Origin: a virus
DNA length: 33,034 nt
Reading direction: 5' to 3' (one strand)
IMG/VR virus record: IMGVR_UViG_3300045988_115170
Coordinates: 1-33,034 of that record
Part shown: positions 1,066 through 33,034 of the stretch, in pieces
Layout: every line of letters starts with the position of its first letter
Numbering within the stretch: the first letter of the stretch is position 1
Translations under genes and position numbers: made by a program
Notes under the pieces: generated by a model
Databases searched by the model: none
What the model saw: only the letters and a program-made list of their open reading frames with translations
Told to the model about the DNA's origin: nothing

Positions 1066-1082
1066 GTGTCCAGAATGGACAC
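1066..1082. repeat. Palindrome family copy 1: GTGTCCA-GAA-TGGACAC (perfect)
   Basis: Read directly. Intergenic, just beyond the lysis-operon terminator. Confidence 0.9.
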
Positions 1083-2400: not shown

Positions 2401-2822
2401 TCTTCCACCGGCGGCGTGGGCCACTGCACCGCGTAGGGGAAGCCAGCCTGCTCGGGCACGTCCCGCAGCGCCTGGCGGTAGGCCTTCCAGTCGGCCTTCA
2501 CCGTCTTGGCATCGCCCAGCACAGTCCAGTCCGTGGCGGCGATCAGCTTGTCACGCTCAGCGCGCACGGCAGCCGCAGCGGCGTCATGGTCGGCCTGTTT
2601 AACCAGGGCGGCCCAGGCATCAACGTCAACCTGCCCATCGGGCACCTGTGTGACCGTCTCGTATGTCGTGTAGCTGTACCCGTGCCAGGGCGTGTCCATG
2701 TTGGACACAGCCTCGCGGGTGACCTCCTGCTCATCCTCGTAGACGCGCACCAGCGTCAGGCCGTTGGGCAGCGGCTCGCACTTCAGCCGGGCGTGCTGCT
2801 CGTTGCACTCACATTTAACCAT
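2397..2822 (-). CDS. Tail-fibre assembly chaperone-like protein
   Basis: The C-terminal ...RDKLIAATDWTVLGDA...WKAYRQALRDVPEQAGFPYAVQWPTPP resembles the conserved C-terminal motif of phage tail-fibre assembly proteins. Its start overlaps the RT stop by 8 nt. Confidence 0.55.
   Translation of the reverse strand: MVKCECNEQHARLKCEPLPNGLTLVRVYEDEQEVTREAVSNMDTPWHGYSYTTYETVTQVPDGQVDVDAWAALVKQADHDAAAAAVRAERDKLIAATDWTVLGDAKTVKADWKAYRQALRDVPEQAGFPYAVQWPTPPVEE
2692..2708. repeat. Palindrome family copy 2: GTGTCCA-TGT-TGGACAC (perfect), inside a CDS
   Basis: Read directly. It encodes VSNMDT in the chaperone-like gene. Confidence 0.9.
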
Positions 2823-4024: not shown

Positions 4025-4141
4025 GAAAGGTCCGCCGAACTGTTCCACCAGAGCAACGACGCGTCGTTCCTGAGATTGACGTTGAACGCGCCCGCGTTGT
4101 CACCGTTGTTGGAGTTCGCACCGCGCAGAACGATACGGGAA
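4025..4141 (-). repeat. DGR template repeat (TR), 117 bp
   Basis: Ungapped alignment to 4232..4348 (offset 207) gives 13 mismatches. Ten of them are at coding-strand adenines of this copy. It contains 7 AAC codons in the VR frame. Confidence 0.9.
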
Positions 4142-4188
4142 TGATGAGATCGTTAGCCTGTCCCGGATAATGTCAATGTCGTACAGTT

Positions 4189-4210
4189 GCGGGGGCCTTG
4201 CTGCCCCCGC
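4189..4210 (-). promoter_or_regulatory. GC-rich hairpin just 3' of the VR (DGR target-recognition hairpin and probable terminator)
   Basis: GCGGGGGC-CTTGCT-GCCCCCGC, an 8-bp stem starting 9 nt past the target-gene stop codon. This matches the position of the hairpin/cruciform required downstream of the VR in the Bordetella phage DGR. Confidence 0.7.
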
Positions 4211-4218
4211 GCCCCCGC

Positions 4219-8306: not shown

Positions 8307-10815
8307 ACTTGACCGCCTCCCGCTGTATCTCGGTTATGCTCAAGCTCAACGGCGTGCAGCCGTGGTCGCGGCTTTCCTGCAAATCCTTAAAAACGCCAAT
8401 CGCCAGATGCCCGGCTCTGTCCTTATATACGACCTGCTGTCCGGCTAAGCTGCGCAGCTTAGCCAGCTCATCCGCGCTCTTGCATGCGTGCGCAATAGTA
8501 TGTGTCACTACTCGGTTGCCTGCATCATGCCAGACGGGGAGCTCTTGACCCCAGTACTGCCGGTAACTGCCGTTAAGGCTTGTGCTTTTGGTGTAGTTCT
8601 GGTAGCTGGTCGCATATTTCAGCGCCATCCACCAGCTGCCGTTGAGCGGTCCGATTGCGGCATAGGGCACACTGGGCGCAACCGTGACCGGCGCGCTGTC
8701 CGTATAGTAGCCATCCGCATCAAAAATGCGGATCACGTACCGGTGATCCAGCACGCCGGTGCGGTCTGTGTACAGTCCTCTGTCCGCCTTGGCGATCAGT
8801 TCACCGTCCCGCAGGATGTACGCGTTATCTCCGCCCCAATGCAGCCGTACCTCTCCCCAGCAGCTCTCTGCGTTGCAGATCACCGGGTCGCCAGGCTGAT
8901 TCTTGACTTTGATCTCGCAACTGGCCCACGGGGACGCGTCCCCGTAAGTGTTGTAGATGCGGACAGACAGAGTATGCTTTCCGTCCGCCAGCACAGCGTC
9001 AGACTGCCACTCTTTGCCCGTGCCGTAGTGCACGCCCAGGCTCACTCCATCCACTGCGATCTCATAGCCGTCCTGCTCCTGCGCCTGCCAGCGCATTTTT
9101 GCAAGCGGTTTGTTATCATAGTAGGAGATGACCGGAGCTTTCGGCGCGCGGCGGATTGCAAAAATCGCCGCGCCGGAATAGTTGCCAAACACGCCGTCTG
9201 TGTTTTTGGTGCGCACGCGCCAGTAAATAACGCCGCTGGAAAATGTGCCGGCAGCTGCCTGGTAGCTCTTATCTGCATTGTCCGCGTTGGCCAGCACAAG
9301 ATAGGACGCGCCGCTGTCGGTAGAGTAGCTCAGCTCCCACCCGGTTTGAGCCGTACCTGTCACGTTCGCGTGCTGCCACACAAACGTAATGCCCTGGACA
9401 GTGTCATCCATGTACTCGCCCGCGGGGCTCACTGCTACAGGTGTGCTCAGCGCGTCCAATGTGGACACGCTGATCGTATCGCTGATAACCTTTGAGCCGG
9501 TGTTGGCAACCGCCTCAACATACCAATCCAGTGTTGTGCATCCCTCGGCAAATGTGTTTGCCGGTACGTCTGCATACTGCTGCGATCCGCTCACGGCGGC
9601 GGTGTGCCACGCGCTCTCGTTGTTGGCCTTGTAGTAAAGTGTCGCACTCTGCTGCGTGACGTCGCCGGGCCGGTCATCACTGTCAACGCTAAAAACCCAG
9701 CTGAATCGGTTGTCAACTGCCCGTGGCGCAGATGCTCCCGCTGCAGGGGTCGTGCCCTTGACGGACACTGGCACCTCAACGTTGGTCACCTGCACCCAGC
9801 CGGATGTGTGCGTGGTTCCCACGGTACTCCGCGCTATAACGCGCCACTGGTAGCTGCCAATGGGCAGTACGCCGCAGTTGACGGTCACGTGGGTCGTGTC
9901 GTTGCCGACGCTGGCAAACTGCGCAGGGTCGGCCATATTATCCGTGCGGTACTGAAGCACAGCAGATGCCTGCTGCAGCGCACCGCTGATAGAGCCACTG
10001 GCGATACTGCCGACAAAAGCCCAGCTAAACGTGGCGTCAAAGCCGTAATACGTCTTGCTGGTAGGGCGCAGGTCGTCCACCTTGGCGCTGGGGTCGGCAA
10101 GTGACAGGGAGTAGGTAGGGCTCTCCGTCACCGTACCGGATCCATAAGCCCCTACTCGCACCCGCCAGCGGATGCCGCTGCCGCTTGACCATGCGGTAGT
10201 ATCCAGATCGTAGGACGTTGCGCCATTGCTCAGGCTGATTGTCTGGCCGTTTCCGCCGTCCTGGTCCGTAATAACGATCTGGCAGGTGGAGTTGCTGCGC
10301 TCAAAGTCATCTTCTGCGTTAGTCGTCCACTGCAAACGGTACTTTGTGTATCGCGCCACCGTTCCGCTGGTCCAGGCTGTGCCCGTCGGCGTGATGACAC
10401 CTTGGTAGCTTACGCAGTTGATCACCGTATCGCTGCGGCTATTACCAACGTTGTTGTATCCGCTCTCGGCATTCACATATATGCCGTAAGCTAAAATTTC
10501 TTTTTTGTTTTTCTGAGTGAACGCGTCAAATGAAAACGTGCAATTCCCGTAAGAAAAATTGCTCTGCTCGCAAACGCTGTTCTCGCTGCTGTGATAGCTC
10601 GAACCTGCGCTGTTAGCAAGTGCATATCCAACCAGCCTGACTCTTCGGCTGCCATTTCCGTATGCAGGGACACGGACGCTCAAGCTCCCAATATACCGGC
10701 TTGTGTTCCCCATCCCAGTGCTGAATAGCCACGAGCATCTGTATGCTTGGTAGTTGGCATTGGGGACCCTGTTGTTTGCCGCAAAGTTTCTCGTGCTCCA
10801 GCTGTGCGATTTCAC
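8293..10815 (-). CDS. Large tail structural protein with tandem Ig/FN3-like modules (possible evolved distal tail protein)
   Basis: First gene after the tape measure. A module signature recurs (IRWRVRVGAYGSG, YQWRVIARSTVG, LDWYVEAVANTG, IYWRVRTKNTDG). Confidence 0.5.
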   Translation of the reverse strand: MKSHSWSTRNFAANNRVPNANYQAYRCSWLFSTGMGNTSRYIGSLSVRVPAYGNGSRRVRLVGYALANSAGSSYHSSENSVCEQSNFSYGNCTFSFDAFTQKNKKEILAYGIYVNAESGYNNVGNSRSDTVINCVSYQGVITPTGTAWTSGTVARYTKYRLQWTTNAEDDFERSNSTCQIVITDQDGGNGQTISLSNGATSYDLDTTAWSSGSGIRWRVRVGAYGSGTVTESPTYSLSLADPSAKVDDLRPTSKTYYGFDATFSWAFVGSIASGSISGALQQASAVLQYRTDNMADPAQFASVGNDTTHVTVNCGVLPIGSYQWRVIARSTVGTTHTSGWVQVTNVEVPVSVKGTTPAAGASAPRAVDNRFSWVFSVDSDDRPGDVTQQSATLYYKANNESAWHTAAVSGSQQYADVPANTFAEGCTTLDWYVEAVANTGSKVISDTISVSTLDALSTPVAVSPAGEYMDDTVQGITFVWQHANVTGTAQTGWELSYSTDSGASYLVLANADNADKSYQAAAGTFSSGVIYWRVRTKNTDGVFGNYSGAAIFAIRRAPKAPVISYYDNKPLAKMRWQAQEQDGYEIAVDGVSLGVHYGTGKEWQSDAVLADGKHTLSVRIYNTYGDASPWASCEIKVKNQPGDPVICNAESCWGEVRLHWGGDNAYILRDGELIAKADRGLYTDRTGVLDHRYVIRIFDADGYYTDSAPVTVAPSVPYAAIGPLNGSWWMALKYATSYQNYTKSTSLNGSYRQYWGQELPVWHDAGNRVVTHTIAHACKSADELAKLRSLAGQQVVYKDRAGHLAIGVFKDLQESRDHGCTPLSLSITEIQREAVKYDPI
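9452..9468. repeat. Palindrome family copy 3 (one mismatch): GCGTCCA-ATG-TGGACAC, inside a CDS
   Basis: Read directly. It shares the flank GGACACGCTGATC with copy 10 (32474..32490, read on the opposite strand). Confidence 0.6.
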
Positions 10816-14773: not shown

Positions 14774-15067
14774 TCATGCGTCGGGCCAGTCTGTGTAGTT
14801 GGTCGTCATTCGCAGCTGCGCCTTCTGCTCATCGTAGGAGGCTTTCAGCTTATCGTAGTCGCCGGTCGGCCAGAAGTTGGCGCGGCAGTAGGTGATGACG
14901 GCACGGCGGATCAGCGGGTCCTGCGTGTCCAGGTTGGACACACCGGCCTGTTTCAGGTCAGCCAGGGCCGCATCCACCAGGTCGCTCACTTCCTGCGTCA
15001 GCTCCTCCGGCATATCAGACCGGCGCAGCGCTACCGTCACTTTGGACAGCAGGTCGTTGTCAGCCAT
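14774..15067 (-). CDS. gp6-like head-tail connector protein
   Basis: Immediately after the capsid gene. It is about 97 aa, acidic and helical, as in the phage gp6-like connector family. Confidence 0.6.
   Translation of the reverse strand: MADNDLLSKVTVALRRSDMPEELTQEVSDLVDAALADLKQAGVSNLDTQDPLIRRAVITYCRANFWPTGDYDKLKASYDEQKAQLRMTTNYTDWPDA
14925..14941. repeat. Palindrome family copy 4: GTGTCCA-GGT-TGGACAC (perfect), inside a CDS
   Basis: Read directly. It encodes VSNLDT. Confidence 0.9.
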
Positions 15068-20484: not shown

Positions 20485-20493
20485 ACTGTTTGC

Positions 20494-20510
20494 GTGTCCA
20501 CACTGGACAC
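20494..20510. repeat. Palindrome family copy 5: GTGTCCA-CAC-TGGACAC (perfect; extends to the 21-bp palindrome GCGTGTCCACACTGGACACGC)
   Basis: Read directly. It ends 9 nt upstream of the HNH start codon, where no Shine-Dalgarno is visible. Confidence 0.9.
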
Positions 20511-20856
20511 GCGCTGCACCTCCACCCGCCGGGGCGTAAAATTATCATAGATGCCCAGCGGCGCGAGACGGAGTTTCTTTTGTCTCGGTGTAGGTGAGGC
20601 TCTCCCGCCCGCCAGGCATGACGGTCTATTGCCGTCCGTCATCCGCTGAGTTTAACCACATCAACGGCACTGCGTACCCGCACACAGGTCTTGCACCTGT
20701 CAAGGTCCATCCCGCCGGGGAACTGGGCGGGCGACTGTGCGGTATGTTGCCGGTCTTTCCCGGCTGTCAGCTATTTCAAGGAGATTAACTATGGCCAGGC
20801 TGGCGGAATCGAACCGCCGGGCGTACCCGTAACCCTGCAACCTTGCAACCCAGTTA
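20511..20856 (-). other. About 345-nt noncoding, highly structured leader of the late (packaging) operon
   Basis: No credible ORF on either strand. Several GC-rich hairpins are present (ATGACGG..CCGTCAT at 20617..20643, ACAGGT..ACCTGT at 20684..20700, CGAGAC..GTCTCG at 20565..20588). It lies between a strong terminator and the first late gene. Confidence 0.5.
20792..20818 (-). other. tRNA T-arm/acceptor-like fragment (GGCGG-TTCGATT-CCGCC-AGCCTGG-CCA), not a complete tRNA
   Basis: Canonical T-loop TTCGATT flanked by a perfect 5-bp stem. No D arm, anticodon arm or matching 5' acceptor strand lies upstream. Confidence 0.4.
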
Positions 20857-20889
20857 TAAAAAAATAGCCGCCCCGATGTGGGGCGACTA
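20857..20889 (-). terminator. Rho-independent terminator ending the early/middle operon
   Basis: The minus-strand RNA forms UAGUCGCCCC-ACAUC-GGGGCGGCUA followed by U7. Confidence 0.8.
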
Positions 20890-20960: not shown

Positions 20961-21383
20961 TTAGCACACTGGGGCGGAACTGGGCGGAACTAATTTTATA
21001 ATTTTGAAAATTGCCCGCCGGTGGAGCTTGCGCACATAGCGCTCAGTGATCCTCATGTGCGCCGCGATCTGGCGGTTGGTGCACCCGTCGATGTAGCGCA
21101 TCTGCAAGACCTCACGCTCCAGGGCATCCTCCAGCTGAGCAATGACGCTCTCAATCTCCACCCTGGCGGCCTCGCCGTCCATCAGCTGGGCGGCCAGCTT
21201 CTCACACCGGGTATTGATGCTCAGCAGCGCACTGTCAATCTCACCGGCCCCGCCGGGTGGGCACAGAGCACGGGCGTAGTCGGCGCGGCGGTTTTCTTCC
21301 CGGAGCCGTTCCCGCAATCGCGGCTCCACCCGCCGGGCATCGCGGTAGCGGTTCAGCCACACGATGCACTCATCATAGGTCAT
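20961..21383 (-). CDS. ArpU/RinA-like late transcriptional regulator (sigma-70 region-4-like HTH)
   Basis: LEREVLQMRYIDGCTNRQIAAHMRITERYVRKLHRRAI resembles a sigma region 4 / ArpU HTH. It is the last gene before the packaging module, the typical place for late activators. Confidence 0.65.
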   Translation of the reverse strand: MTYDECIVWLNRYRDARRVEPRLRERLREENRRADYARALCPPGGAGEIDSALLSINTRCEKLAAQLMDGEAARVEIESVIAQLEDALEREVLQMRYIDGCTNRQIAAHMRITERYVRKLHRRAIFKIIKLVPPSSAPVC

Positions 21384-21574
21384 TGGGCATCACCTCCCGG
21401 AGATGGTTCAAAGTCATCACATTCCAGCACAATGCCCGCGCCGTCCGTCTTTTCGACGCCGTAGCAGTACAACTCACAATCCAGGTTAAACAGTCCCTTA
21501 TTGTGGGTGCACCCCTCGCACCTGTCAAGGTGCGGCTGGCTCATGCCGGGAATCCCGCAAAATCCGCTGTTCAT
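21380..21574 (-). CDS. Small Cys-rich hypothetical protein (64 aa)
   Basis: ATGA-coupled at both ends. Six Cys residues (CGIPG...CEGC...C...C). Confidence 0.45.
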   Translation of the reverse strand: MNSGFCGIPGMSQPHLDRCEGCTHNKGLFNLDCELYCYGVEKTDGAGIVLECDDFEPSPGGDAQ

Positions 21575-22983
21575 TTCTTTTTCGCCTCCCGCGCGGCCCG
21601 CTGGATGTCCTCGGCAATGTAGCCCTCAATACCCGCGCCGGTGCTGTACCAGCGCTTGTACCACTCAAGCGCATTGATGTCTCCGTCCCGGCCTGCGCGC
21701 TCACCGTCCGGGCCGAGTCGGACAGAAAAGCACTCACGATACGGGAACCCATCCACCGGGCCGTCATATCGCCCCATATCATCCACCGCGATGATGAGCC
21801 GCCCGCCGTCGAACATTTTGCGCTCACGGATCGTAAGCCCTAAATCCTTGTGACGGGCCGTCAGCTTCCAGTTGTCGAAGTCGGCCAATTCTTGCCGAGC
21901 CAGTACGAGCCATTTTTCAGCGGCGTCATGCCGTGCCTTTTCGGCGTTTCTTTTCGCTTTCTCCTCGGCCTTATATTTTTCAAGCGCTTTTTTGTCAATA
22001 TAGCGGCTGCGCGCGGTGCGGTACAGTCGGGATGAATAGATGCAGCTCTTGGCGATGACCTCGTTCTGATCCGCCGGGTCCAGCTGTTCAACAGTGAACG
22101 ATGTCCGCCCTGCCGGGGCGATGCGCAGGATAGCGTTGGCGATATTATCGGTCATGTCCAACGTCACGGTCTGCATTTTCTGTGCATCAAACTTGCCCCC
22201 GTCCGCATAATTCCACTCACAGCACTGGACGTAATCCAATCCCCTCAGCTGATCGGCCATGCCCTCATCAACAATGTACAGGATTGCGGCTTTCTGTACC
22301 TCATCGCTCGCCTCCGGCAGGGGAGCGTAGCTGTTTTTTGCGTATGTCGCCTGCTGTACCTTGTACAGCTTGCTGCACTCATAGGCCCGCGTCATGGTGA
22401 TCTCGCCGCGCTCCACCATCGCCAAAACCTCCGGCACGCAGTTGTTGGCAATGGCATTCAGCCTCCCCAGTGTGCCGGTGCCTTCGCCGGTGATGCGGCT
22501 CATCTCATCGCGGACGCGCCCGCCCAGGCTGCCCGCCGCCTTTTTGCGTTCAAGGGCCTGTTTGAGGGCGATGTACTGCCGGAGTCGTTCGCCGTCCGTC
22601 AGCTCGCGCGCCGTGGCGTTGGAGGTGATCAGCGCGATCAGGTCATCATCCGCGCCCTGGCTTTGGTGGATAACACAGGGCAGGACCTCAAACCCGGTCA
22701 CACCCTCAGCCGTCAGCGCACAGCACGCGGTCCAACGGCGGTGTCCGGCCAGCAGCATATATTTGCCGTTCTGGGCGGGCAGGACCTCCAGCGGGCTGCG
22801 CAATCCTCGCTCGGCAATGTCGGCTTTCAGCATGGAGACATCGCCGATCTCGTAGATGCTGTTTTCCGGGTTCGGTTCAATATCGGCTGCCGGCAGCATG
22901 ACGACCTGCATTTTCTGACCCGCCGGGGCGGCTGTTTTCGCACTGCTGCCGAGAATGTCGTTGATAGAAAATCCCTTGCTCAT
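21571..22983 (-). CDS. parB: ParB-like protein (ParB/Srx N-domain plus HTH, long unknown C-terminal half)
   Basis: VVMLPAADIEPNPEN...LLAGHRRWTA carries the GxxRxxA ParB box, followed by an HTH-like GRVRDEMSRITGEGTGTLGRLNAIA. Strong SD AGAGGAGGA. Confidence 0.75.
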   Translation of the reverse strand: MSKGFSINDILGSSAKTAAPAGQKMQVVMLPAADIEPNPENSIYEIGDVSMLKADIAERGLRSPLEVLPAQNGKYMLLAGHRRWTACCALTAEGVTGFEVLPCVIHQSQGADDDLIALITSNATARELTDGERLRQYIALKQALERKKAAGSLGGRVRDEMSRITGEGTGTLGRLNAIANNCVPEVLAMVERGEITMTRAYECSKLYKVQQATYAKNSYAPLPEASDEVQKAAILYIVDEGMADQLRGLDYVQCCEWNYADGGKFDAQKMQTVTLDMTDNIANAILRIAPAGRTSFTVEQLDPADQNEVIAKSCIYSSRLYRTARSRYIDKKALEKYKAEEKAKRNAEKARHDAAEKWLVLARQELADFDNWKLTARHKDLGLTIRERKMFDGGRLIIAVDDMGRYDGPVDGFPYRECFSVRLGPDGERAGRDGDINALEWYKRWYSTGAGIEGYIAEDIQRAAREAKKK

Positions 22984-22986
22984 GGT

Positions 22987-23769
22987 TCAATCCTCCTCTG
23001 TGTCCACGTTGGACACGATGCTCTCAACCTTTTCGGCCAGCGCCTTATAATCCAGCGCTGCCGTGCAATCAGGGCTGAACGTGCGTAGCGGCTTGTGTGC
23101 GCTCTTGGCCTCGCTGACCCTCACGGTGTAGCGGATGACCGTGGGCAGCAGGGCCAGGCCGGGCAGCTTCTCAGCAATGGTGTGGATGACGTCTGCCGCG
23201 TACCGAGTGCGGCGGTATTTCGTCAGCAGCACGCCCATGATTTTGAGGCGCGGGTTGTAGTCTATCTGCACCTGCTCGATCTGGTCGATGATTTCCCGCA
23301 TCCCGTCACAAGCCCACTCATCACAGTCCACCGGGATGATGACCCAGTCAGCCGCGCACAGGGCGTTGATGCTGCCCATGTCAAGGTCTGGCGGGCAGTC
23401 CATGATGCAGTAGCCATAGTTGGCGCTTACGTCCTTGAGGGCATCGCGCAGATGGTATTGGCGCGGGCCGTTGTCCATCAAGATCATGCGGTTTGCTTTC
23501 AGCATCCGCATGTCGCAGGGAATCAGATTGACGGCGGCCAGGTTGGTGTCTACCACGGCACCCGGCGCGCGGCACACGCCCAGCATGATCTCTGCGATGC
23601 TGGGGCTGTCGTAGTCCAGAACACCGAAAAACTTGCTTGTGTTACCTTGTTTGTCCAGATCAACCACCAACACGCTCTTGCTCTTGGCGGCCAATTCGGC
23701 GGCCAGGTTGCAGGCGGTGACGCTTTTCCCGACGCCGCCTTTCAAGTTGATAATTGCAATGCTGATCAT
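22987..23769 (-). CDS. parA: ParA/Soj-family ATPase
   Basis: Deviant Walker A NLKGGVGKS near the N-terminus and typical ParA length (260 aa). Confidence 0.9.
   Translation of the reverse strand: MISIAIINLKGGVGKSVTACNLAAELAAKSKSVLVVDLDKQGNTSKFFGVLDYDSPSIAEIMLGVCRAPGAVVDTNLAAVNLIPCDMRMLKANRMILMDNGPRQYHLRDALKDVSANYGYCIMDCPPDLDMGSINALCAADWVIIPVDCDEWACDGMREIIDQIEQVQIDYNPRLKIMGVLLTKYRRTRYAADVIHTIAEKLPGLALLPTVIRYTVRVSEAKSAHKPLRTFSPDCTAALDYKALAEKVESIVSNVDTEED
23000..23016. repeat. Palindrome family copy 6: GTGTCCA-CGT-TGGACAC (perfect), in the last codons of parA and abutting the parB-like SD
   Basis: Read directly. It encodes VSNVDT. On the minus strand it is followed immediately by AGAGGAGGA and the ATG at 22983. 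Confidence 0.9.
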
Positions 23770-23802: not shown

Positions 23803-25131
23803 TTATTGCGGCCAGCTCATCTGGTCGATTTCTTCATAGTCCTCTTTCGGGGTCGGCTGCCATTGATGGTATTGGGGCTGCCATCGCATGGACACAACGC
23901 CCGTCGGCCCCTCGCGGTTCTTGGCGTACATGACGGCGGTATCCTGATAGGCGTCCTCGCCGCGCAGCTCCTTGCTGTCCTCGGTGCGCCTGTTCTCCAC
24001 AAAGATCGCGCTGTTGGCGTCCTGTTCAATCGTGCCGGAGCCGCGCAGGTCCTCCAGATTGCAGAAGCGGCCCTCGTTGCCCTTCACGCCGGCGCGGTTG
24101 ATCTGGCACAGCTCCACAACCACGATGCCCATCTTCATGGCGGCCACCTTCAGCCGCCGGGTGATCTCGCTGATGCGCTGGTACTCGGTCTGGCGCGGGT
24201 CGGTGGGACTTAACAGGCCGATGTGGTCAATAAAGGCGATGTCCGGCTTGTACTGCATGAGCTTGGCCTCCAACCCGTCAATCGTCAGGTTGCTGTCGGC
24301 ATCCAGCATCATGTTGTGATGCTGGCGCAGCCGGGCGGCGGCATTGTTGATGATCTCCCGCTCACGCGGGGCCAGGCTCTTGTTGGTGAGCTTGCCGGAG
24401 TCGATGCGCGCAACCTTGGACAGGATCCTGTCCATCAGTGCCTCCGCCGTCTCCTCCAGCGTGAGGTAGTAGACCTTGTACCGCTTCGAGAGCCGGGCCG
24501 CCAGATTCAGCGAGAAATCCGTCTTGCCGCACCCGGGCCGCCCGGCCACAACGCAGACGCGCTGCCGACCAAAGACGCCGTACCGGTCCAGCTCCGGCCA
24601 GCCCAGTTTCAGGCTGTCGTCCGGCTCATCCAGCCGGGCCAGCGCGGAATCCAGCACCGCGTCAAAGTCCCGGGCCGTGCTGTCGGTCTGGGTGCTGCGG
24701 ATGGCATCCTGCACCGCCAGCGTGCGGCGCAGCTGGCGGCAGACGCCGTCGCTGTCCATGGCATCCTTGGCCATGCACTTCAGCAGGTCGCCCTGCAAAA
24801 GCGAGTAGCGGTAGTCCTCCAGTATTTGCGCCGCATAGCTGCCGACGTTGGAGACGCTGGGGCAGGTCTCGGCCATTGCCACAACGCCGGGCCTGATCTC
24901 ATCCGCCGGGCGGCCCGCCGATGCCCGGTTGATGACCGTGATGACGTCCACCGGCTCCCCGGCCATGGTGAGCTGCTGCACCGCGCTGAACACCGCGCGG
25001 CTCACGCCCTCGTCGAACATCCCGGGCACCAGCTTGATGATGTACTCCCGTGCGCGGGCCGGGTCCATGAGCGCCGCGCCCAGAAACGCCCGCTGCGTCT
25101 GCTGCTGCCGGCTTATAGTTGCACGTTCCAT
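23803..25131 (-). CDS. dnaB: Replicative DNA helicase (DnaB family)
   Basis: DnaB N-domain-like start, Walker A GRPGCGKT, and a ...IDHIGLL... / ...LCQINR... RecA-like core. Confidence 0.9.
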   Translation of the reverse strand: MERATISRQQQTQRAFLGAALMDPARAREYIIKLVPGMFDEGVSRAVFSAVQQLTMAGEPVDVITVINRASAGRPADEIRPGVVAMAETCPSVSNVGSYAAQILEDYRYSLLQGDLLKCMAKDAMDSDGVCRQLRRTLAVQDAIRSTQTDSTARDFDAVLDSALARLDEPDDSLKLGWPELDRYGVFGRQRVCVVAGRPGCGKTDFSLNLAARLSKRYKVYYLTLEETAEALMDRILSKVARIDSGKLTNKSLAPREREIINNAAARLRQHHNMMLDADSNLTIDGLEAKLMQYKPDIAFIDHIGLLSPTDPRQTEYQRISEITRRLKVAAMKMGIVVVELCQINRAGVKGNEGRFCNLEDLRGSGTIEQDANSAIFVENRRTEDSKELRGEDAYQDTAVMYAKNREGPTGVVSMRWQPQYHQWQPTPKEDYEEIDQMSWPQ

Positions 25132-25140
25132 TCAAAAGCC

Positions 25141-25950
25141 TCACAAAAAATCAAGTATGTCGGTGTCCGGCCCGATCTCCCGCGGGCGATCCTCCGTGCT
25201 GGCGGGGCGCTGGGTGGGGACGGCATCCACAAAATCGTCCTTCAGGGCGAACAGCCCCTCCCATCCGCGCAGGATGCTCTGCTCGAGCACTGCGACCATG
25301 TAGCCGTAGCGGTCACGCACGCCCGCCTCGTCGGCCAGCTGGTTGAGCTTGTTGCAGGCCAGCGACGCGGCGTTGACGGTCAGCGGATGCTTGCCCGCGG
25401 CCCGGGACTCCTCAAATGCGAGCAGGGCCTCCGTCAGCCGTTCATTCCACGGGAAGGATTCCCGGAGAACATCCCGGACGCTCTCTCGCGCGCCCGCACG
25501 CGTATTGTTCTCTCTTGTATTGTTATTCTTGTATTGTTCTAGGCGACATTTTTGTCGGTGGGTAGGCGACATTTTTGTCGGGGTGGGTGCGACATTTTTG
25601 TCGCCCGCCGACACTGGGTGTCGCTCACCGACATTTTTGTCGGCCTCTGTTTCCGGGGCTTCCTTATGCGCTGCATCTGACAGCGGGGAGATGCGCCGCT
25701 GCATTGCGGCACCGTCCCGGACATTGGTCACGGCCACATAGCCCAGCTCCTGCAGGTGCTTCACCCAGCGCTGCACGGTGCGGTCACTCGTGTCGTACAG
25801 CTCGCTGAAATAGCCGTTGCCGGCGTAGCAGTACCCGCACTGGTCGGACAGGGCGGTGATTTCTGCAAAGAAAACCTTCTCGGACGCACTGAGTCGCCTG
25901 TCGTACCGTACCGGGGAGGGAAGAATAGCGTAAAATCCGGGTTTTTCCAT
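25141..25950 (-). CDS. Replication initiator / replisome organiser (N-terminal wHTH, C-terminal DnaD-like) containing the origin
   Basis: N-terminal YAILPSPVRYD..LSASEKVFFAEI is wHTH-like. The iteron array lies in the linker-coding part. It is directly upstream of dnaB. Confidence 0.7.
   Translation of the reverse strand: MEKPGFYAILPSPVRYDRRLSASEKVFFAEITALSDQCGYCYAGNGYFSELYDTSDRTVQRWVKHLQELGYVAVTNVRDGAAMQRRISPLSDAAHKEAPETEADKNVGERHPVSAGDKNVAPTPTKMSPTHRQKCRLEQYKNNNTRENNTRAGARESVRDVLRESFPWNERLTEALLAFEESRAAGKHPLTVNAASLACNKLNQLADEAGVRDRYGYMVAVLEQSILRGWEGLFALKDDFVDAVPTQRPASTEDRPREIGPDTDILDFL
25502..25642. repeat. Origin of replication: AT-rich GTATTGTT x3 (25502..25540) plus iterons CGACATTTTTGTCG x4 (25544, 25567, 25590, 25629) and the variant CGACACTGGGTGTCG (25609)
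   Basis: Read directly. Iteron spacing is 23, 23, 19 and 20 bp. Each iteron is itself an inverted repeat, CGACA-TTTT-TGTCG. Confidence 0.75.
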
Positions 25951-26494: not shown

Positions 26495-26560
26495 TCACTT
26501 TGTCAGCCATGCGTAAATCAGAAGGCTGATAACAATAATTGCCACTGCGACCCAAGTCAT
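26495..26560 (-). CDS. Possible 21-aa hydrophobic micro-protein (MTWVAVAIIVISLLIYAWLTK)
   Basis: TGATG overlap with the upstream stop codon and a single TM-like helix. Very short, so uncertain. Confidence 0.25.
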   Translation of the reverse strand: MTWVAVAIIVISLLIYAWLTK

Positions 26561-27303
26561 CAGATCATCACCACCACATTGCCGCTCTCGATCAGGTCGG
26601 CCAGCTTCTCGCCCAGATAGGCGGCAATGTTGCGCTTGGCCTCCAGCCTCCACGCGCCGCCGTCAGCCTCGTGCAGCGCCGGGTAGCCCGACTTGCTCAA
26701 GCGCAGCAGGAAGTCGCTGGCGGGTTGCTCGACCTCAAGGAACGTGCGGTAGGGCTGCAGGTGGACGATAGGCTTCACCGTCTGCTGCTCTTTCAGCACC
26801 GCGCCGGTACGGACGCTGACCTCCTGACTAACGCCATTGTCCACAGTGGACACGCCCTGATTGACGTCAATGCGGCTCAGCAGCGCCAGCAAGTAGTCGC
26901 GGTCCGGGGTAACGGCGTACAGGCTCTGCAATTCCACGATGGCCTGCTCCTGGCTCATCTCCTGGTTGACGGTAATGCCCGGCGCGTCACTCACGGCCTC
27001 ATACAGCGGCAGGCGGCTGTAGATCGCGTAGTCGCGGCCCGTGTAGGTGCTGTCCACTACGACCAGCCGGGCGCCGTCCACTCGCACATACAGCAGCGGT
27101 GCCTGGGCGACGCCCTCGGTGCGGATCAGCTTGACCAGCGCCTCCAGAGTATCCACCGAGTACCGTGCCGGGAGTTCAACCTCCGGCTTGACCTCGCGCA
27201 GATCGGCGGAGCAGAACTGATGCCCGTTGCGCGTTTCCAGGGTGAAGGGGGTCGCCAGCTCCACAATGCGGTTAATAGCGTCTTTTAAAAAGCTGTTTTC
27301 CAT
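26560..27303 (-). CDS. Hypothetical early protein (247 aa; possibly DUF2303-like)
   Basis: Clear ORF with the SD-like GAAAGGA. The family assignment rests on weak recollection only. Confidence 0.5.
   Translation of the reverse strand: MENSFLKDAINRIVELATPFTLETRNGHQFCSADLREVKPEVELPARYSVDTLEALVKLIRTEGVAQAPLLYVRVDGARLVVVDSTYTGRDYAIYSRLPLYEAVSDAPGITVNQEMSQEQAIVELQSLYAVTPDRDYLLALLSRIDVNQGVSTVDNGVSQEVSVRTGAVLKEQQTVKPIVHLQPYRTFLEVEQPASDFLLRLSKSGYPALHEADGGAWRLEAKRNIAAYLGEKLADLIESGNVVVMI
26837..26853. repeat. Palindrome family copy 7 (outer base mismatch): TTGTCCA-CAG-TGGACAC, inside a CDS
   Basis: Inner 6+6 arms are perfect. It encodes VSTVDN. Confidence 0.65.
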
Positions 27304-29621: not shown

Positions 29622-30312
29622 GTTTATCCTCCATTTCCGGGCCGATGTAGGCACCGGCCTCATTGTAGTTCTTGGGGTCCGCCATCGGGCTGTCCCATCC
29701 GCACATAGCCCCGCCGTACATGGCAGCAGCCTGGGCGCGGGTGACGCCCGCCGCTTCGTTCAGTGTGTCCACAGTCTCTTGCTCCACCACACCGAACAGG
29801 GTGCGCTCCCCGCGCACGATGCGGACGATGTTGTTGGTGTAGCGGCTGCGGGCGTAGGCGTAGGCGGGCAGCCCCGCCTCATCATAGGTCATTTTCATGG
29901 GCTTGGTCTCCTTTTTCGGTTTTGGCCGCTTGTGCGGCATACCGGCGGCAAGCGCCGGGTGTTTCTTTTTCCAGCTGCACACCCTATGCCGGATTGCCTC
30001 GTGCGTCACCGGCTGGGTGTAGCCCATCATGCTGCGCACGGTACTGATCGGCGCGCCGCCGTAGTAGTACAGGATGCTTTCCAGCATCACCTCCGGCGGC
30101 ACAGGGTTGCAGATGCGCTCAACAGGCGGGCCGACGGGTTGCTTGTTTTGAGGGTGCGCCGCGCGGAATGTGTCAAGGCTTGTATAGCCCAGGCGCTCCA
30201 GCAGCGTGTCCTCGGCCACGCTCAGGCACTCGGCGCAGATTCTCAGCTGGCGGCGGGCGTTGGTGCAGTTCCTAAGCCTGGATTGCACCCAGGCCAGATC
30301 ATCCGTTGTCAT
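29608..30312 (-). CDS. Hypothetical protein (234 aa)
   Basis: TGATG coupling to the upstream gene. Lys-rich linker KRPKPKKETKP between two halves. Confidence 0.5.
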   Translation of the reverse strand: MTTDDLAWVQSRLRNCTNARRQLRICAECLSVAEDTLLERLGYTSLDTFRAAHPQNKQPVGPPVERICNPVPPEVMLESILYYYGGAPISTVRSMMGYTQPVTHEAIRHRVCSWKKKHPALAAGMPHKRPKPKKETKPMKMTYDEAGLPAYAYARSRYTNNIVRIVRGERTLFGVVEQETVDTLNEAAGVTRAQAAAMYGGAMCGWDSPMADPKNYNEAGAYIGPEMEDKHGEE

Positions 30313-30524
30313 CAGCAGATCTGTCTTGCCAGCGCGGTGGCCGGGATGCGCTTGTCACGGCCCTGGCCGGTCCAGCCGTGCATATTGCGGCAGACCTTGC
30401 GGGCCGCCTGGGGGTCGGTGCCGTAGACGATGTGCGCGGCCTCGGCCACTGTCACCATCTCGCCAGCGGCCTCGTGCCGGATGCGCTCCAGCGCGTCCCG
30501 ATAGCCCTCTTTTTCTCGTGCCAT
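30312..30524 (-). CDS. Small HTH DNA-binding protein, excisionase-family-like (70 aa)
   Basis: MVTVAEAAHIV......RIPATALARQ resembles excisionase/MerR-type wHTH proteins. Start is preceded by AAGGAGGA. Confidence 0.4.
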   Translation of the reverse strand: MAREKEGYRDALERIRHEAAGEMVTVAEAAHIVYGTDPQAARKVCRNMHGWTGQGRDKRIPATALARQIC

Positions 30525-30537
30525 AGTAGTCCTCCTT

Positions 30538-30554
30538 GTGTCCAATGTGGACAC
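30538..30554. repeat. Palindrome family copy 8: GTGTCCA-ATG-TGGACAC (perfect)
   Basis: Intergenic. On the minus strand it abuts the SD AAGGAGGA of gene 30312..30524. On the plus strand it ends 4 nt before the -35 of the promoter at 30559. Confidence 0.9.
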
Positions 30555-30602: not shown

Positions 30603-30920
30603 GTGTGTAAATTGACTGATAATCAGTACAAAATCTTTAAGGCCGTGCGGAAATACCGCACCCTGCCCGAAATACTGACCGCCACGGGAATCTCGGATTA
30701 TCTCACCTTGCAGGAAGATGCCGGAGTTGGGATGCTGGACTTCTCTGATTGTGAAATGGATGAGAAAACCATCGTCACCTTAACCAACCCCGCCGCAGAG
30801 GCGTTTGAATCGCGCCGCCGCAATGATTGGGATTTTTTCCTCACACATGTCGTCGCGGTCTACGCCGCAATAATGGCAACGATTGCCATTATTGTCGAGA
30901 TTATTCTACATTTTCTGTAA
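30603..30920 (+). CDS. Membrane-anchored hypothetical protein (about 102-105 aa; soluble N-domain plus C-terminal TM helix), antisense to the early operon
   Basis: GTG at 30603 or TTG at 30612 after GAAAGGG. C-terminal FFLTHVVAVYAAIMATIAIIVEIILHFL. It has its own promoter. Confidence 0.55.
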   Translation: MCKLTDNQYKIFKAVRKYRTLPEILTATGISDYLTLQEDAGVGMLDFSDCEMDEKTIVTLTNPAAEAFESRRRNDWDFFLTHVVAVYAAIMATIAIIVEIILHFL

Positions 30921-31028
30921 TGCGTGCATAACCGCCAGCAGCACCGCCAGCGTAGACACAACTGCGCTGTACAGATTCAGCCAGCGCAAGCTGCGGCGTC
31001 TGCGCTTTTCTTTGTCGTCGTTGTGCAT
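30906..31028 (-). CDS. Possible 40-aa membrane micro-protein (MHNDDKEKRRRRSLRWLNLYSAVVSTLAVLLAVMHALQKM)
   Basis: AGGAG lies 8 nt upstream of the ATG. It has a basic N-terminus and one TM helix. Its 3' end overlaps the convergent plus-strand gene by 15 nt. Confidence 0.35.
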   Translation of the reverse strand: MHNDDKEKRRRRSLRWLNLYSAVVSTLAVLLAVMHALQKM

Positions 31029-31045
31029 TGGTGTTCATCTCCTGC

Positions 31046-31062
31046 GTGTCCAAGGTGGACAC
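31046..31062. repeat. Palindrome family copy 9: GTGTCCA-AGG-TGGACAC (perfect; extends to the 21-bp palindrome GCGTGTCCAAGGTGGACACGC)
   Basis: Intergenic, downstream of cro and abutting the AGGAG of the micro-ORF. It shares the right flank GGACACGCTGTT with copy 8. Confidence 0.9.
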
Positions 31063-31069
31063 GCTGTTT

Positions 31070-31084
31070 GTCACTTATCGTGAC
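31070..31084. promoter_or_regulatory. Distal operator-like site O4: GTCAC-TTATC-GTGAC
   Basis: Same GTCAC-N5-GTGAC inverted repeat as O1. It lies 5 nt past the cro stop codon. Confidence 0.45.
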
Positions 31085-31088
31085 ATTT

Positions 31089-31286
31089 TTAGGCGTAAAA
31101 AATCTCTTCCACGGTTTTCTCGTAATACTGCGCGATTTTACGCTTTGTTTCATCGCGGGGGATTCTAGCGCCAGTCTCGTACATTGCCAGTGCAGAAACG
31201 CTTACCCCCAGCGCTGTTGCAACCTCGGCGCGCGGTCGAGCGCCCCGCAGTTCAACCAATGTTTGCGCAATCTTCTCTGAATCCAT
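31089..31286 (-). CDS. cro: Cro-like XRE-family HTH regulator (65 aa)
   Basis: HTH RAEVATALGVSVSALAMYETGARIP. It is divergent from the repressor gene. The preferred start is the ATG 6 nt after GAGGTG; the ORF-track GTG at 31313 lies inside the operator. Confidence 0.8.
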   Translation of the reverse strand: MDSEKIAQTLVELRGARPRAEVATALGVSVSALAMYETGARIPRDETKRKIAQYYEKTVEEIFYA

Positions 31287-31308
31287 CAGAATCACCTCGC
31301 TTTCATTT

Positions 31309-31323
31309 GTCACGAACCGTGAC
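31309..31323. promoter_or_regulatory. Operator O1: GTCAC-GAACC-GTGAC
   Basis: Perfect 5+5 inverted repeat just downstream of the -10 of the cro promoter. Confidence 0.55.
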
Positions 31324-31332
31324 TATATATAC

Positions 31333-31360
31333 AGTATATCACGCTCTTGGTATTTGTCAA
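31333..31360 (-). promoter_or_regulatory. Early lytic promoter (TTGACA, 16-nt spacer, TATACT) for cro
   Basis: Consensus -35 and a 5/6 match at -10, read on the minus strand. Confidence 0.65.
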
Positions 31361-31373
31361 CACATTCCGTGAC
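31359..31373. promoter_or_regulatory. Imperfect operator O2: AACAC-ATTCC-GTGAC overlapping the -35 of the cro promoter
   Basis: One perfect half-site plus a 3/5 half-site. The CGTGACATTTT word is shared with O4. Confidence 0.35.
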
Positions 31374-31382
31374 ATTTTGCGG

Positions 31383-31410
31383 TTGACTTTCTCACGATTC
31401 GTGATATTAT
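31383..31410 (+). promoter_or_regulatory. Repressor (maintenance) promoter TTGACT, 16-nt spacer, TATTAT, with operator O3 (TCAC-GATTC-GTGA, 31392..31404) in the spacer
   Basis: Read directly. The RBS AGAGAGGA and the ATG at 31442 follow. Confidence 0.55.
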
Positions 31411-31441
31411 AAGATTAGTACACAGAGAGGATTGACTTCGC

Positions 31442-32080
31442 ATGGCTAAATTTTCGGCAATTATAAAATCCCTTCGCATCGAGAGAGGCATAACGCAAGA
31501 GCAACTCGCTGCCTTGCTAAAAGTATCCCGCAGTACGATAGGCATGTATGAAACTGGTAGCCGCGAACCAGATTTTGAAACGCTTGAAGCTATCGCAGAC
31601 ATTTTCAATGTCGACATGGATTATCTCATGGGGCGATCAACCGTAGAACGGAAAGATCCTGTTGCCGCTACCCCAATCCCCGCCGGGTTCCAGCCGCTGC
31701 CGAAGCGGGACCTCATCCCGCGTGTGGGGCAGATCGCCTGCGGCACACCCATCCTCGCGGAGGAGAATGTCGAGGCCTACGATGAAGTCCCCAGCGAGTG
31801 GCATGCCGACTTTACGCTGCTATGCCAGGGCGACAGCATGGAGCCAAAAATCAAAGACAGCGATGTCGTAGCCATCCACAGCCAGCCAATGGTCGAGAAC
31901 GGCGAGGTCGCTGCCGTCCTGATCGATGGCGAAGCCACCCTCAAGCGCGTGTTTCTGTTCGATGACCACATCGAGCTCCGCGCCGAAAACCCAGCCTTTC
32001 CCACGATCATCCGCATCGGCGAGGATATGAACACCATCACCATCGAAGGCAAGGCCGTTGGCCTATGCCGCAAATTGTAA
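31442..32080 (+). CDS. CI/LexA-like repressor (XRE HTH plus S24 autopeptidase)
   Basis: N-terminal HTH ITQEQLAALLKVSRSTIGMYETGSREP. C-terminal GDSMEP (catalytic Ser) and ATLKRV (catalytic Lys). Confidence 0.9.
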   Translation: MAKFSAIIKSLRIERGITQEQLAALLKVSRSTIGMYETGSREPDFETLEAIADIFNVDMDYLMGRSTVERKDPVAATPIPAGFQPLPKRDLIPRVGQIACGTPILAEENVEAYDEVPSEWHADFTLLCQGDSMEPKIKDSDVVAIHSQPMVENGEVAAVLIDGEATLKRVFLFDDHIELRAENPAFPTIIRIGEDMNTITIEGKAVGLCRKL

Positions 32081-32473: not shown

Positions 32474-32490
32474 GTGTCCGGAGTGGACAC
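32474..32490. repeat. Palindrome family copy 10 (6-bp arms): GTGTCC-GGAGT-GGACAC
   Basis: Intergenic, 76 nt upstream of the int start. Confidence 0.7.
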
Positions 32491-32565: not shown

Positions 32566-33034
32566 ATGCCAAAAGTAGCAAAGCGCGCCGACGGCCTGGT
32601 TGAGCGCTGCCGGATCATCAACGGGAAAAAGCGTCATTTCTATGGCCGCACTCTCAAAGAGGTACAGGCAAAGATTGACGCCTCTGTTGTGGAGGCGTCC
32701 GTCCGCAAGGAAAAAGGAGATCCGTTTGGCGATGTGGCCGAGGCTTTCTGGCGGGTCAAAGAGCTGTCAATCAGATATGGCTCCCGCCGGGGCTACCGCC
32801 ACAAAGTAGAGGTTGCTAAAGATTGGTTCGGCCAGCAGGGGATGCGTGAGATCAGCAGCACCGACATCAACCGCCAGCTGACACACATGGCCGCCCAGGG
32901 CTATGCTTATAAGAGCATCGCTGGGCAAAAGTCAGTGTTGTCGCTGATATGGCAGTATTGGTGCGCTGAGATGCACGGCGACACCAACCCCTGCACACTG
33001 TTAAAGTTGCCCCAGGGACTACCCCAAAAAAAAC
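32566..33034 (+). CDS. int: Tyrosine integrase, N-terminal part (arm-binding and core-binding domains); continues at position 2 after the circular junction
   Basis: The ATG at 32566 is preceded by GGAGG. No stop codon occurs before the window end. The last 119 nt are identical to 1..119 and in frame with ORF 20..763. Confidence 0.9.
   Translation, partial: MPKVAKRADGLVERCRIINGKKRHFYGRTLKEVQAKIDASVVEASVRKEKGDPFGDVAEAFWRVKELSIRYGSRRGYRHKVEVAKDWFGQQGMREISSTDINRQLTHMAAQGYAYKSIAGQKSVLSLIWQYWCAEMHGDTNPCTLLKLPQGLPQKK
32916..33034. repeat. Terminal direct repeat copy B (identical to 1..119)
   Basis: See copy A. Confidence 0.95.

Follow-up and report, generated by a model that had tools for sequence, protein, structure and literature searches.

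The locus described here raises the question of why an integrating phage should retain what appears to be a ParABS-type system within an early lytic operon. It comprises parA, a parB-like gene and a palindrome at the junction of the two, and it is found in IMG/VR virus record IMGVR_UViG_3300045988_115170, all 33,034 nucleotides (nt) of which were analysed and are referred to below as the window. Because the terminal 119 bases of the window repeat (bases 1-119 are the same as 32916-33034), it is a circular phage assembly of 32,915 bp. The palindrome, further copies of which are spread over this genome, is a selected DNA-sequence element tied to the parA/parB-like pair. It is likely to be the cognate site of the ParB-like protein.

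Occurrence of the palindrome in the genome

The palindrome GTGTCCAnnnTGGACAC (17 bp, of the form GTGTCCA-N3-TGGACAC) is found 10 times in the 32.9-kb circular genome, compared with 0.08 expected occurrences, and none of 100 shuffled sequences reached 10 matches. Up to 2 mismatches to the search pattern (GTGTCCANNNTGGACAC) were allowed, and each match found had at most 1. Some copies widen to palindromes of 21 bp, e.g. GCGTGTCCAAGGTGGACACGC at 31044-31064.

Five of the ten copies are intergenic, one lies at the parA/parB-like junction and four are inside genes (Table 1). Given that 6.2% of the DNA is non-coding, five intergenic copies are more than chance would provide (P = 1.8e-4). A sequence-only reading of the window had described the copies as lying at operon boundaries, which is no more than half right. 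The junction copy had been placed in the last codons of parA, 17 nt before the parB-like ATG, and this position was confirmed. ParABS systems have a palindromic cis site in or next to the par operon; the same is true of the present pair, and the position of the site is conserved across the family.

All five copies within coding sequence are read in one frame (GTG TCC Axx xTG GAC ACx). The shared frame gives common codons, as expected for a DNA site kept under coding constraints. The copy at 31046 is retained in integrated relatives. A good sigma-70-like promoter adjoins one copy only (32474), in a sigma-70-type scan that would miss late promoters. Relative to this strong minus-strand promoter (32538-32510), the copy at 32474 lies at about +13 to +29; it precedes a terminator (32464-32431), and its distance to the integrase gene, int, stays at about 90 nt in relatives despite the insertion of hicAB cargo. 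Together with the copy at 1066 it brackets the int-attP region, so that the two become the prophage ends upon integration.

The segment 32431-32538 consists of the promoter (TTGACA-17-TACAAT with an extended TG), the palindrome copy and the terminator, with no gene between them, and it resembles an empty moron cassette because relatives L350-L352 carry hicAB toxin-antitoxin genes in this slot.

Sequence conservation of the palindrome

The two arms of the palindrome are identical in 231 distinct sites, with a variable central triplet. At the junction the C-terminal tails of ParA differ greatly among alleles, and the arms are unchanged. In the in-gene copies, synonymous positions are conserved more strongly in the arms than in the flanks. 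For example, third-codon positions are 100% conserved in the arms of the copy at 26837 but only 86% in its flanks (26 distinct alleles), and the copy at 14925 keeps its arms around a centre of ACC, ACT, ACA or ATG in alleles that are rich in synonymous changes. About 44 kb of host DNA flanking integrated copies of the phage contains no palindrome site. It is the invariant arms, the synonymous constraint and the site-free host flank, together with the linkage seen in relatives, that identify the palindrome as a selected element associated with parAB.

Linkage of the palindrome to the ParB-like family

Nearly all of the 63 IMG/VR loci that were found via the ParB-like protein carry the palindrome. 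Where the upstream region was included, every relative of at least 59% identity has a copy at -25 to -31 from the parB-like ATG. A scan of IMG/VR with the palindrome only gave 119 loci, many of them chance singletons; 26 have a ParB-like gene as determined by hidden Markov model, and in 13-15 of these 26 the palindrome lies at most 120 nt from the parB-like start. Palindrome-linked relatives range down to 24-35% ParB-like identity and over 28-63% genome GC content, and in the contig of 28% GC a chance occurrence of the linked palindrome is very unlikely. In a clade of 24-29% ParB-like identity the palindrome is located at +47 to +56, where it encodes VSKLDT in the N-terminal peptide of the protein. 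Two isolated prophages came to light solely through similarity of the protein. In Flavonifractor phage Cormatin there are three exact copies and GTGTCCGAATCGGACAC at +56 of its ParB-like gene, and Enterocloster phage Saumur has a degenerate copy at -26.

Six distant representatives were picked blindly from a 50%-identity cluster search. The core TGTCC-N5-GGACA lies at the junction in 2/6 (L341, L343) and just after the gene in 1/6 (L339); the palindrome is absent from the other 3/6, two of which have the gene context of an integrative or conjugative element. ParA and the ParB-like protein are the only window proteins detectably common to all distant palindrome loci. The trio of ParA, ParB-like protein and palindrome that had been proposed from the window is therefore real and linked, and the tie between palindrome and parAB extends over a phage family that is large and has diverged deeply. 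Such linkage would be expected of a cognate site, whether parS-like or an operator. The most widely kept copy is that preceding the late operon (20494), and it is also present in a clade that has no junction copy (L057, L059, L060, L062).

Some other occurrences were observed. An integrated relative, L347 (ERZ28636198 scaffold_294, 2300-6300), has the order cro, palindrome, parA, palindrome, parB-like gene, late regulator and late genes; it is without the whole replication module, yet parAB and the palindromes are kept. A palindrome scan of the genome collection gave mostly chance matches in large high-GC actinobacterial genomes, the exceptions being a few prophages and L273, a contig from an uncultured Lachnospiraceae (OMZJ01000033.1, 1000-5400). 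The latter has 17 palindrome copies in 40-bp tandem arrays (unit GTGTGTCCATTATGGACACGCTTTG...), which lie upstream of successive genes beside ArdC and an SNF2 helicase, in what resembles a conjugative element's leading region. The 8 kb of this contig that was covered contains no ParB-like gene, and the array unit gave one irrelevant match in the metagenome scan and nothing useful in PLSDB. In addition, otherwise unrelated viral contigs (L065, L071, L079, L106, L108, L129 and L167; 49-57% GC, 31-59 kb) have the exact palindrome at a distance of about 740 nt from a gene homologous (54-60% identity) to the XhlA/holin-like gene 1315-1635 of the window, an arrangement that mirrors the window copy at 1066.

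ParA and the ParB-like protein

The deviant Walker A motif KGGVGKS, by which the first protein of the pair had been recognized as a ParA ATPase, is found at residues 10-16, as in the ParA proteins of type I ParABS systems. The assignment is borne out by matches to Pfam AAA_31 (1.8e-46) and CbiA (1.2e-26), to PHROG 164 'ParA-like' (7.5e-57) and to the ParA structure 8ray (1.6e-37) and Thermus Soj 1wcv (5.9e-32). The ParA tail ends ...ESIVSNVDTEED*, with the stop codon at 22987-22989.

The second protein matches PHROG 4715 'ParB-like partition protein' (5.9e-44), and in a phmmer search its residues 26-200, i.e. the N domain and the helix-turn-helix (HTH), align with Thermus thermophilus Spo0J (1vz0, E 3e-8). 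The AlphaFold2 (AF2) model has a mean predicted local distance difference test score (pLDDT) of 87.8, with helices at 130-217. Its top Foldseek matches in the PDB are Spo0J, Noc, ParB-CDP/CTPgammaS and KorB (E ~1e-7), the likeness being confined to the N-terminal 200 residues or so. The N domain and HTH named in the sequence-only reading are thus upheld by both alignment and model, and the protein has the N-terminal fold with GxxR(R) and the following HTH that characterize ParB of type I systems. GHRRWTA occupies residues 80-86, inside the ParB/Srx nucleotide-binding fold; G80, R82, R83, A86, N122 and R126 are at least 90% conserved within the family, in agreement with the proposed GxxRxxA box.

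For the C-terminal half, structure prediction had been suggested as a means of clarification. Residues 226-470 fold confidently; the model comprises a pair of small beta-sheet modules, a long helix at ~331-367 and, at the terminus, a helix that ends in KKK. Foldseek found no credible PDB match to this domain (best E 0.11), and no Pfam family was detected past residue ~120. Among the best 150 clusters at 50% identity, about 12 reach far into the C-terminal domain.

Integration of the phage

The window phage is an ordinary integrating temperate phage, as is evident from prophages adjacent to sdaAB, from the tRNA 3' end in attP and from relatives that are induced prophages. A 112-amino-acid (aa) DUF4429 protein encoded beside int is found in contigs of 52-705 kb, and 653 blocks of the collection are indexed for it; in these contigs the end of the prophage lies about 0.5 kb past int, with host sdaAB coming next. 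Homology to the integrated prophages stops at about 916, where a tRNA 3' end (GAGTTCAAATCTCTCTTACTCCGCCA) constitutes the attP core (~880-925). At about 1000-1060 there are four GTCGTAAAA-like repeats that resemble arm-type integrase sites. ParB-like proteins that are nearly identical carry the name 'uncultured Gemmiger sp.' and are encoded on contigs reaching 294 kb. The same parA/parB-like module is present in Cormatin and Saumur, both of which were recovered as induced prophages with host-genome coordinates in a study of the OMM12 consortium (PMC10197239).

The phage differs from phage-plasmids of the P1/N15 type in having an integrase, a tRNA 3' end in attP, integrated relatives and no promoter-like site before parA. 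Since the pair is located 33 nt behind dnaB in the early operon and has no promoter-like site of its own, parAB is probably repressed by CI in the lysogen and expressed with the early lytic genes. Such silence in the lysogen would count against both plasmid-like maintenance and silencing during lysogeny. Both roles had been entertained in the sequence-only reading. A choice between integration and plasmid-like maintenance is not supported, in view of relatives integrated at the tRNA/sdaAB site in 52-705-kb contigs and of the induced prophages Cormatin and Saumur; gene silencing by the ParB-like protein during lysogeny is at odds with the place of parAB in an early lytic operon that the lysogen probably keeps repressed.

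Proposed function and alternative explanations

We suggest, with moderate confidence, that the palindrome is the parS-like site of a divergent ParB-like protein and that the two, together with the Soj-type ParA, would form a phage-borne ParABS-type system. The site is assigned to the ParB-like protein rather than to ParA because the latter has no specific DNA-binding domain, whereas the former has an HTH of the Spo0J type. Such an HTH would bind a two-fold symmetric site as a dimer, and therefore suits the palindrome. A dimer of the ParB-like protein might contact the two 7-bp half-sites via its HTH domains, and the N-domain with its GHRR motif would take up a nucleotide, most likely cytidine triphosphate (CTP). 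Upon nucleotide binding the protein could accumulate on, or slide from, the ten loading sites; because these are 0.5-6.8 kb apart, most of the 33-kb genome would be marked. ParA would be contacted by the flexible N-terminal peptide (MSKGF...). Because the phage integrates and the pair follows the replication genes in the early operon, parAB would most probably act on extrachromosomal phage DNA during replication, after infection or induction. Its role might be the positioning or segregation of genome copies, and transcription could perhaps also be influenced.

In a more speculative extension, which we consider rather doubtful, a phage-specific clamp of the ParB-CTPase fold, with the new 245-aa C-terminal domain, would coat the whole genome from its ten or so sites once the early operon fires. 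It would thereby time or license late transcription and packaging, and perhaps join the sites that flank int-attP, and ParA would position the replicating genomes. If true, this would amount to long-range control of the BisD/KorB kind within a temperate phage family that is common in the human gut.

A number of observations weigh against a ParABS-type system. The ParB-like protein is missed by curated ParB models, scoring 23.2 bits with Pfam PF02195 ParB_N (gathering threshold 26.3) and 25.2 bits with TIGR00180 (cut-off 58.45). The canonical CTP-hydrolysis glutamates (GERR, ENLQR) are replaced by H and S, so the nucleotide cycle may differ from that of canonical ParB; in this respect, passages of a survey of the ParB-CTPase fold mention ParB folds that bind ATP or GTP (PMC12704722). 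The ParA-activating N-terminal peptide of ParB is defined there as [LFI]G[KR]G[LFI], which the N-terminus of the window protein (MSKGFSINDILG, residues 1-24 being disordered in the AF2 model) approximates, with K-G-F kept, S for G and M for L/F/I. Neither the Pfam scan nor the fold search found a canonical C-terminal dimerisation domain. The clade of L057 has the parB-like gene and an extra open reading frame (ORF) between it and parA but no junction copy. In close relatives, synteny with parAB includes the late regulator and the small ORF. Clades that share the palindrome have different residues in the recognition helix (GTGTLGRLNAI vs SAPKLARLKVI), and for this reason a conserved recognition helix was discarded as an argument for shared specificity. 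Finally, a partition system is without obvious use for an integrating phage.

In a possible but less probable alternative, the ParB-like protein would load at the palindromes as a nucleotide-gated clamp and control transcription at a distance, as a global regulator like KorB or BisD. Its output would come via the C-terminal domain, perhaps with the sigma/ArpU-like late regulator, and partition would be secondary or absent; binder and site would be those of the ParABS-type system, and only the main output would differ. KorB has 12 dispersed operators on RK2, with which ten sites per 33 kb are comparable. Regulation would fit the excess of intergenic copies (5/10, P = 1.8e-4), the copies that open the late operon, follow cro, precede an early gene or occupy +13 to +29 of a strong promoter, and the pair of copies that bracket int-attP and form the prophage ends once integrated. 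It would also fit the module order with the late regulator, which is kept in Saumur and the window, the confidently folded extra domain of 245 aa with no matching solved fold, and the 40-bp palindrome arrays upstream of successive genes in the Lachnospiraceae conjugative-element contig L273. In ICEclc, late promoters of the integrated element are switched on by BisD, which is a ParB-like CTP clamp that has an activator domain in addition (PMC12409273). On the other hand, only one copy adjoins a recognisable sigma-70-type promoter, four conserved copies are deep within structural or early genes, a genuine Soj-type ParA is always co-encoded, and no partner like KorA, TrbA or BisC was identified, no test having been aimed at one. 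Another binder altogether, i.e. the late regulator, a small phage protein or a host factor, is unlikely; the junction copy would then reflect regulation of the parAB operon. Perfect two-fold symmetry suits a ParB HTH dimer better than a monomer of the sigma region-4 type, and in clades of 24-35% identity no homologue of the late regulator or of other early proteins was detected, only ParA and the ParB-like protein. The site is found in phages whose hosts have 28-63% GC but not in the 44 kb of host flank, and published parS searches for the hosts of Cormatin and Saumur used the canonical TGTTTCACGTGAAACA, with sites in 12/12 OMM12 genomes (PMC10197239). In favour of another binder are the late-operon copy, which is the most widely conserved and survives in the clade without a junction copy, the unconserved recognition helix, and the fact that the ParB-like gene accompanies every close relative of the late regulator. 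Phyletic separation of the two failed, as identity is 90% or more in 31/31 regulator relatives, which all belong to the same phage family and mostly lie on contigs already in the ParB-like set. Owing to their synteny with parAB, the late regulator and the small ORF are still to be counted as candidate binders in close relatives.

A role of the palindrome at the RNA level, with a 7-bp stem and a 3-nt loop serving in mRNA as a 5' stabiliser, processing site or translational element, is very improbable. The copies at 23000, 30538 and 31046 are immediately 5' of a Shine-Dalgarno sequence and ATG, a fourth lies 10 nt before the HNH ATG, and a terminator-like scan picked up some copies. Yet a structural hairpin would tolerate compensatory changes, whereas the arms never covary and are the same in 231/231 distinct sites, which makes a purely RNA-level hairpin unlikely. 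The in-gene copies, the copy past the late terminator and the 40-bp arrays clash with a role linked to the Shine-Dalgarno sequence, and no Rfam family was found over the palindrome or the late leader. It is also very unlikely that parAB and the palindromes keep the phage as a low-copy plasmid in lysogens, for which P1 and N15 are precedents. Circular contigs of about 33 kb occur in metagenomes and the phage has its own initiator, origin and DnaB, but virion or replicative DNA would equally be expected to give circular contigs. Moreover, contigs as long as 705 kb contain nearly identical prophages that all occupy one integration site beside host sdaAB, the host-genome coordinates of induced Cormatin and Saumur (PMC10197239) indicate integration, and parAB is without a promoter of its own within the CI-controlled early operon.

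Relation to known systems

The proposed ParABS-type system resembles chromosomal Soj/Spo0J of Firmicutes and Thermus in its Soj-type ParA of about 260 aa and in a ParB with an N-terminal nucleotide-binding fold and HTH. The best sequence and structure matches of the ParB-like protein are Spo0J 1vz0, Noc and ParB-CTP structures, and both systems have a palindrome of about 16-17 bp in some ten copies, of which several are in genes and one is within the par operon or adjoins it. The sites themselves are unrelated: canonical chromosomal parS is TGTTNCACGTGNAACA, whereas the window site, GTGTCCA-N3-TGGACAC, has an odd 3-bp centre. The window protein also differs in failing the TIGR00180 and Pfam cut-offs, in having GHRR in place of GERR and a 245-aa domain in place of the canonical C-terminal dimerisation domain, and the pair is encoded by an integrating phage within its early lytic operon.

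N15 has a ParA/ParB-type pair, SopAB, with four centromere sites scattered in the genome of a linear phage-plasmid, and Sop has been reported to affect the expression of late genes. It is a non-integrating plasmid prophage whose type Ia system (large SopA with HTH) has its own promoter. The window phage shares with it a ParA/ParB-type pair and dispersed palindromic sites in a phage genome, but it integrates, and its Soj-type ParA is without its own promoter.

KorB-IncC of RK2 (PMC11790492, where the mechanism of KorB-KorA control is described) likewise pairs a ParB-family protein with a ParA and has about a dozen dispersed palindromes, some near promoters and some far from them. It has the dual logic of centromere and regulator, and KorB is among the fold matches of the window protein (E ~1e-7). 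Many dispersed operators per replicon, as found for KorB, are also a feature of the window, with 10 in 32.9 kb. Sequence similarity to KorB is, however, negligible (phmmer E 0.85), the site sequence is another one, the replicon is a phage rather than a plasmid, and only one site is close to a sigma-70-like promoter; no KorA-like clamp-locking partner was found in the window, none having been specifically tested. BisD of ICEclc (PMC12409273) is part of an integrated element and is similar in that a ParB-like protein has parS-like sites and an additional domain specific to its lineage. It works once the element becomes active and adjoins the activation of late or transfer genes, as the window protein would. 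BisD has two bisS sites and needs BisC, whereas the window has ten sites, ParA and a sigma/ArpU-like neighbour.

In its presumed working the system thus resembles Soj/Spo0J, KorB/IncC, N15 SopAB and BisD. New here are the parS-like consensus, the domain architecture, and the fact that an integrating phage has a ParABS-type module in its early operon and sites throughout its genome. A full-text literature search on phage and prophage ParB-like proteins and parS gave no paper on this phage family, and the passages available from the 2025 survey of the ParB-CTPase fold (PMC12704722) do not mention it. According to these passages, proteins with this fold are abundant and diverse in phages and prophages, where their sites and roles are almost uncharacterised; the phage versions are often fused to unknown domains, and a DUF3850 fusion is regularly encoded beside parA. 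The present case offers a concrete pairing, in which a large family of gut Clostridia phages has a defined 17-bp site with a conserved junction position and further sites genome-wide. Gemmiger, Flavonifractor and Enterocloster all fall within the range of the family, which is common in metagenomes of the human gut. Cormatin in Flavonifractor plautii, a strain of the OMM12 consortium, is a possible experimental system: as it was recovered from that strain as an induced prophage, chromatin immunoprecipitation sequencing and deletion tests should be feasible in this host. If the proposed pairing is true, it would provide an orthogonal ParB/parS pair for DNA labelling in anaerobes.

Gene order and other elements of the window

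Nearly all genes of the window are on the minus strand. In order of decreasing coordinates, early genes are followed by dnaB, parA, the parB-like gene, a Cys-rich ORF and the late regulator (Table 1). The gap between dnaB and parA is 33 nt, the pair belongs to the operon on the cro side, and no promoter-like site was found before parA in the promoter scan of the window. A leader separates the late regulator from the late operon, which encodes HNH, TerS, TerL, portal, head and tail proteins, a diversity-generating retroelement and lysis genes. The order parA, parB-like gene, small ORF, late regulator and late operon is common to Saumur and the window. The tyrosine integrase gene crosses the window junction and is contiguous in the source contig (ENA k119_76578). 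No tRNA genes were found in the window.

Table 1. Coordinates of the parA/parB-like locus, the palindrome copies and neighbouring features in the window
Feature	Position	Strand	Remarks
parA, 260 aa	22987..23769	minus	starts MISIAIINLKGGVGKS; Soj-type Walker ATPase, small, without N-terminal HTH
parB-like gene, 470 aa	21571..22983	minus	ATG starts at 22983
Domains of the ParB-like protein	residues 1-24; ~26-125; ~130-215; 226-470		disordered; ParB/Srx fold; HTH; lineage-specific
C-terminal domain, residues 226-470	21574..22308	minus	AF2 pLDDT 90.7
Palindrome, junction copy GTGTCCACGTTGGACAC	23000..23016		encodes VSNVDT of ParA tail; directly 5' of parB-like Shine-Dalgarno
Palindrome copy 10 nt before HNH ATG	20494..20510		intergenic; 3' end of 380-nt leader, late-operon head
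Palindrome copy between cro stop and next early ORF	31046..31062		intergenic; directly 5' of Shine-Dalgarno and ATG
Palindrome copy directly 5' of Shine-Dalgarno of 70-aa early gene (30312-30521)	30538..30554		intergenic
Palindrome copy, 1 mismatch, ~80 nt upstream of int	32474..32490		intergenic
Palindrome copy after late-operon terminator	1066..1082		intergenic; ~140 nt from attP core, beside GTCGTAAAA repeats
Palindrome copy in 247-aa early gene (26560-27303), 1 mismatch	26837..26853		in gene; frame V-S-T-V-D-N
Palindrome copy in head-tail connector gene (14774-15067)	14925..14941		in gene; V-S-N-L-D-T
Palindrome copy in 840-aa tail gene (8293-10815), 1 mismatch	9452..9468		in gene; palindrome pattern search
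Palindrome copy in 141-aa Phage_tail_APC gene (2397-2822)	2692..2708		in gene; palindrome pattern search
cI (HTH and S24 peptidase)	31442-32080	plus	immunity region
cro	31089-31286	minus	immunity region
HTH_36 initiator	25141-25950	minus	early genes, which also include SSB
DnaB	23803-25131	minus	early genes
64-aa Cys-rich ORF	21380-21574	minus	after parB-like gene; no Pfam or PHROG family match
Late regulator, sigma-70 region-4 / ArpU-like	20961-21383	minus	precedes late operon
Strong terminator	20892-20862	minus	followed by 380-nt non-coding leader

Other DNA-binding proteins of the phage have sites of a different kind. CI/Cro operators (GTCACGnnnCGTGAC) are found at 31300-31420 between cI and cro, with one further copy after cro (31069-31085), and divergent promoters are present in this region (minus strand, 31360-31333; plus strand, 31383-31410). 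CI and Cro were considered as binders of the 17-bp palindrome and rejected, as the immunity region has its own palindrome family. The likely replication origin (25502-25647) contains four CGACATTTTTGTCG palindromic iterons, at 25544-25642 inside the initiator gene, and three GTATTGTTCT repeats; at the same place, relatives L057, L058 and L062 have four copies of GGGAAAAAATTTCCC and, in addition, AGTAATAAATCT repeats. Clusters of GGGAAAnnnTTTCCC in these three relatives were considered as an alternative parS and dismissed, since they lie within the initiator gene beside AT-rich repeats and are origin iterons. As the operator and iteron sequences differ from the palindrome, CI/Cro and the initiator already have sites of their own.

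The 380-nt leader of the late operon (20485-20862, minus strand) folds better than shuffled sequences (z = -3.1) and is about 96% conserved in relatives. It holds a tRNA/tmRNA-like T-arm and CCA fragment (ggcggttcgattccgccagcctggcca) at about 20790-20820.

On the plus strand, an ORF of about 103 aa (~30609-30920) is AT-richer and antisense within the minus-strand early operon. Its C-terminal hydrophobic stretch could be a membrane helix, and it is convergent with a 40-aa ORF (30906-31028) that ends in a hydrophobic stretch. The 103-aa ORF is probably a moron.

The diversity-generating retroelement extends over 2815-5835. Its reverse transcriptase (RT; 413 aa, 2815-4056, minus strand) has a weak RVT_1 match, and the Rfam RNA RT-18 is matched at 3891-3969 (minus strand, 42.9 bits). 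The template repeat (4025-4141) and variable repeat (4232-4348) are 117 nt in length and differ at 13 positions; at 10 of these the RT-proximal copy has A. The variable repeat forms the 3' end of a gene of 523/538 aa (4219-5835).

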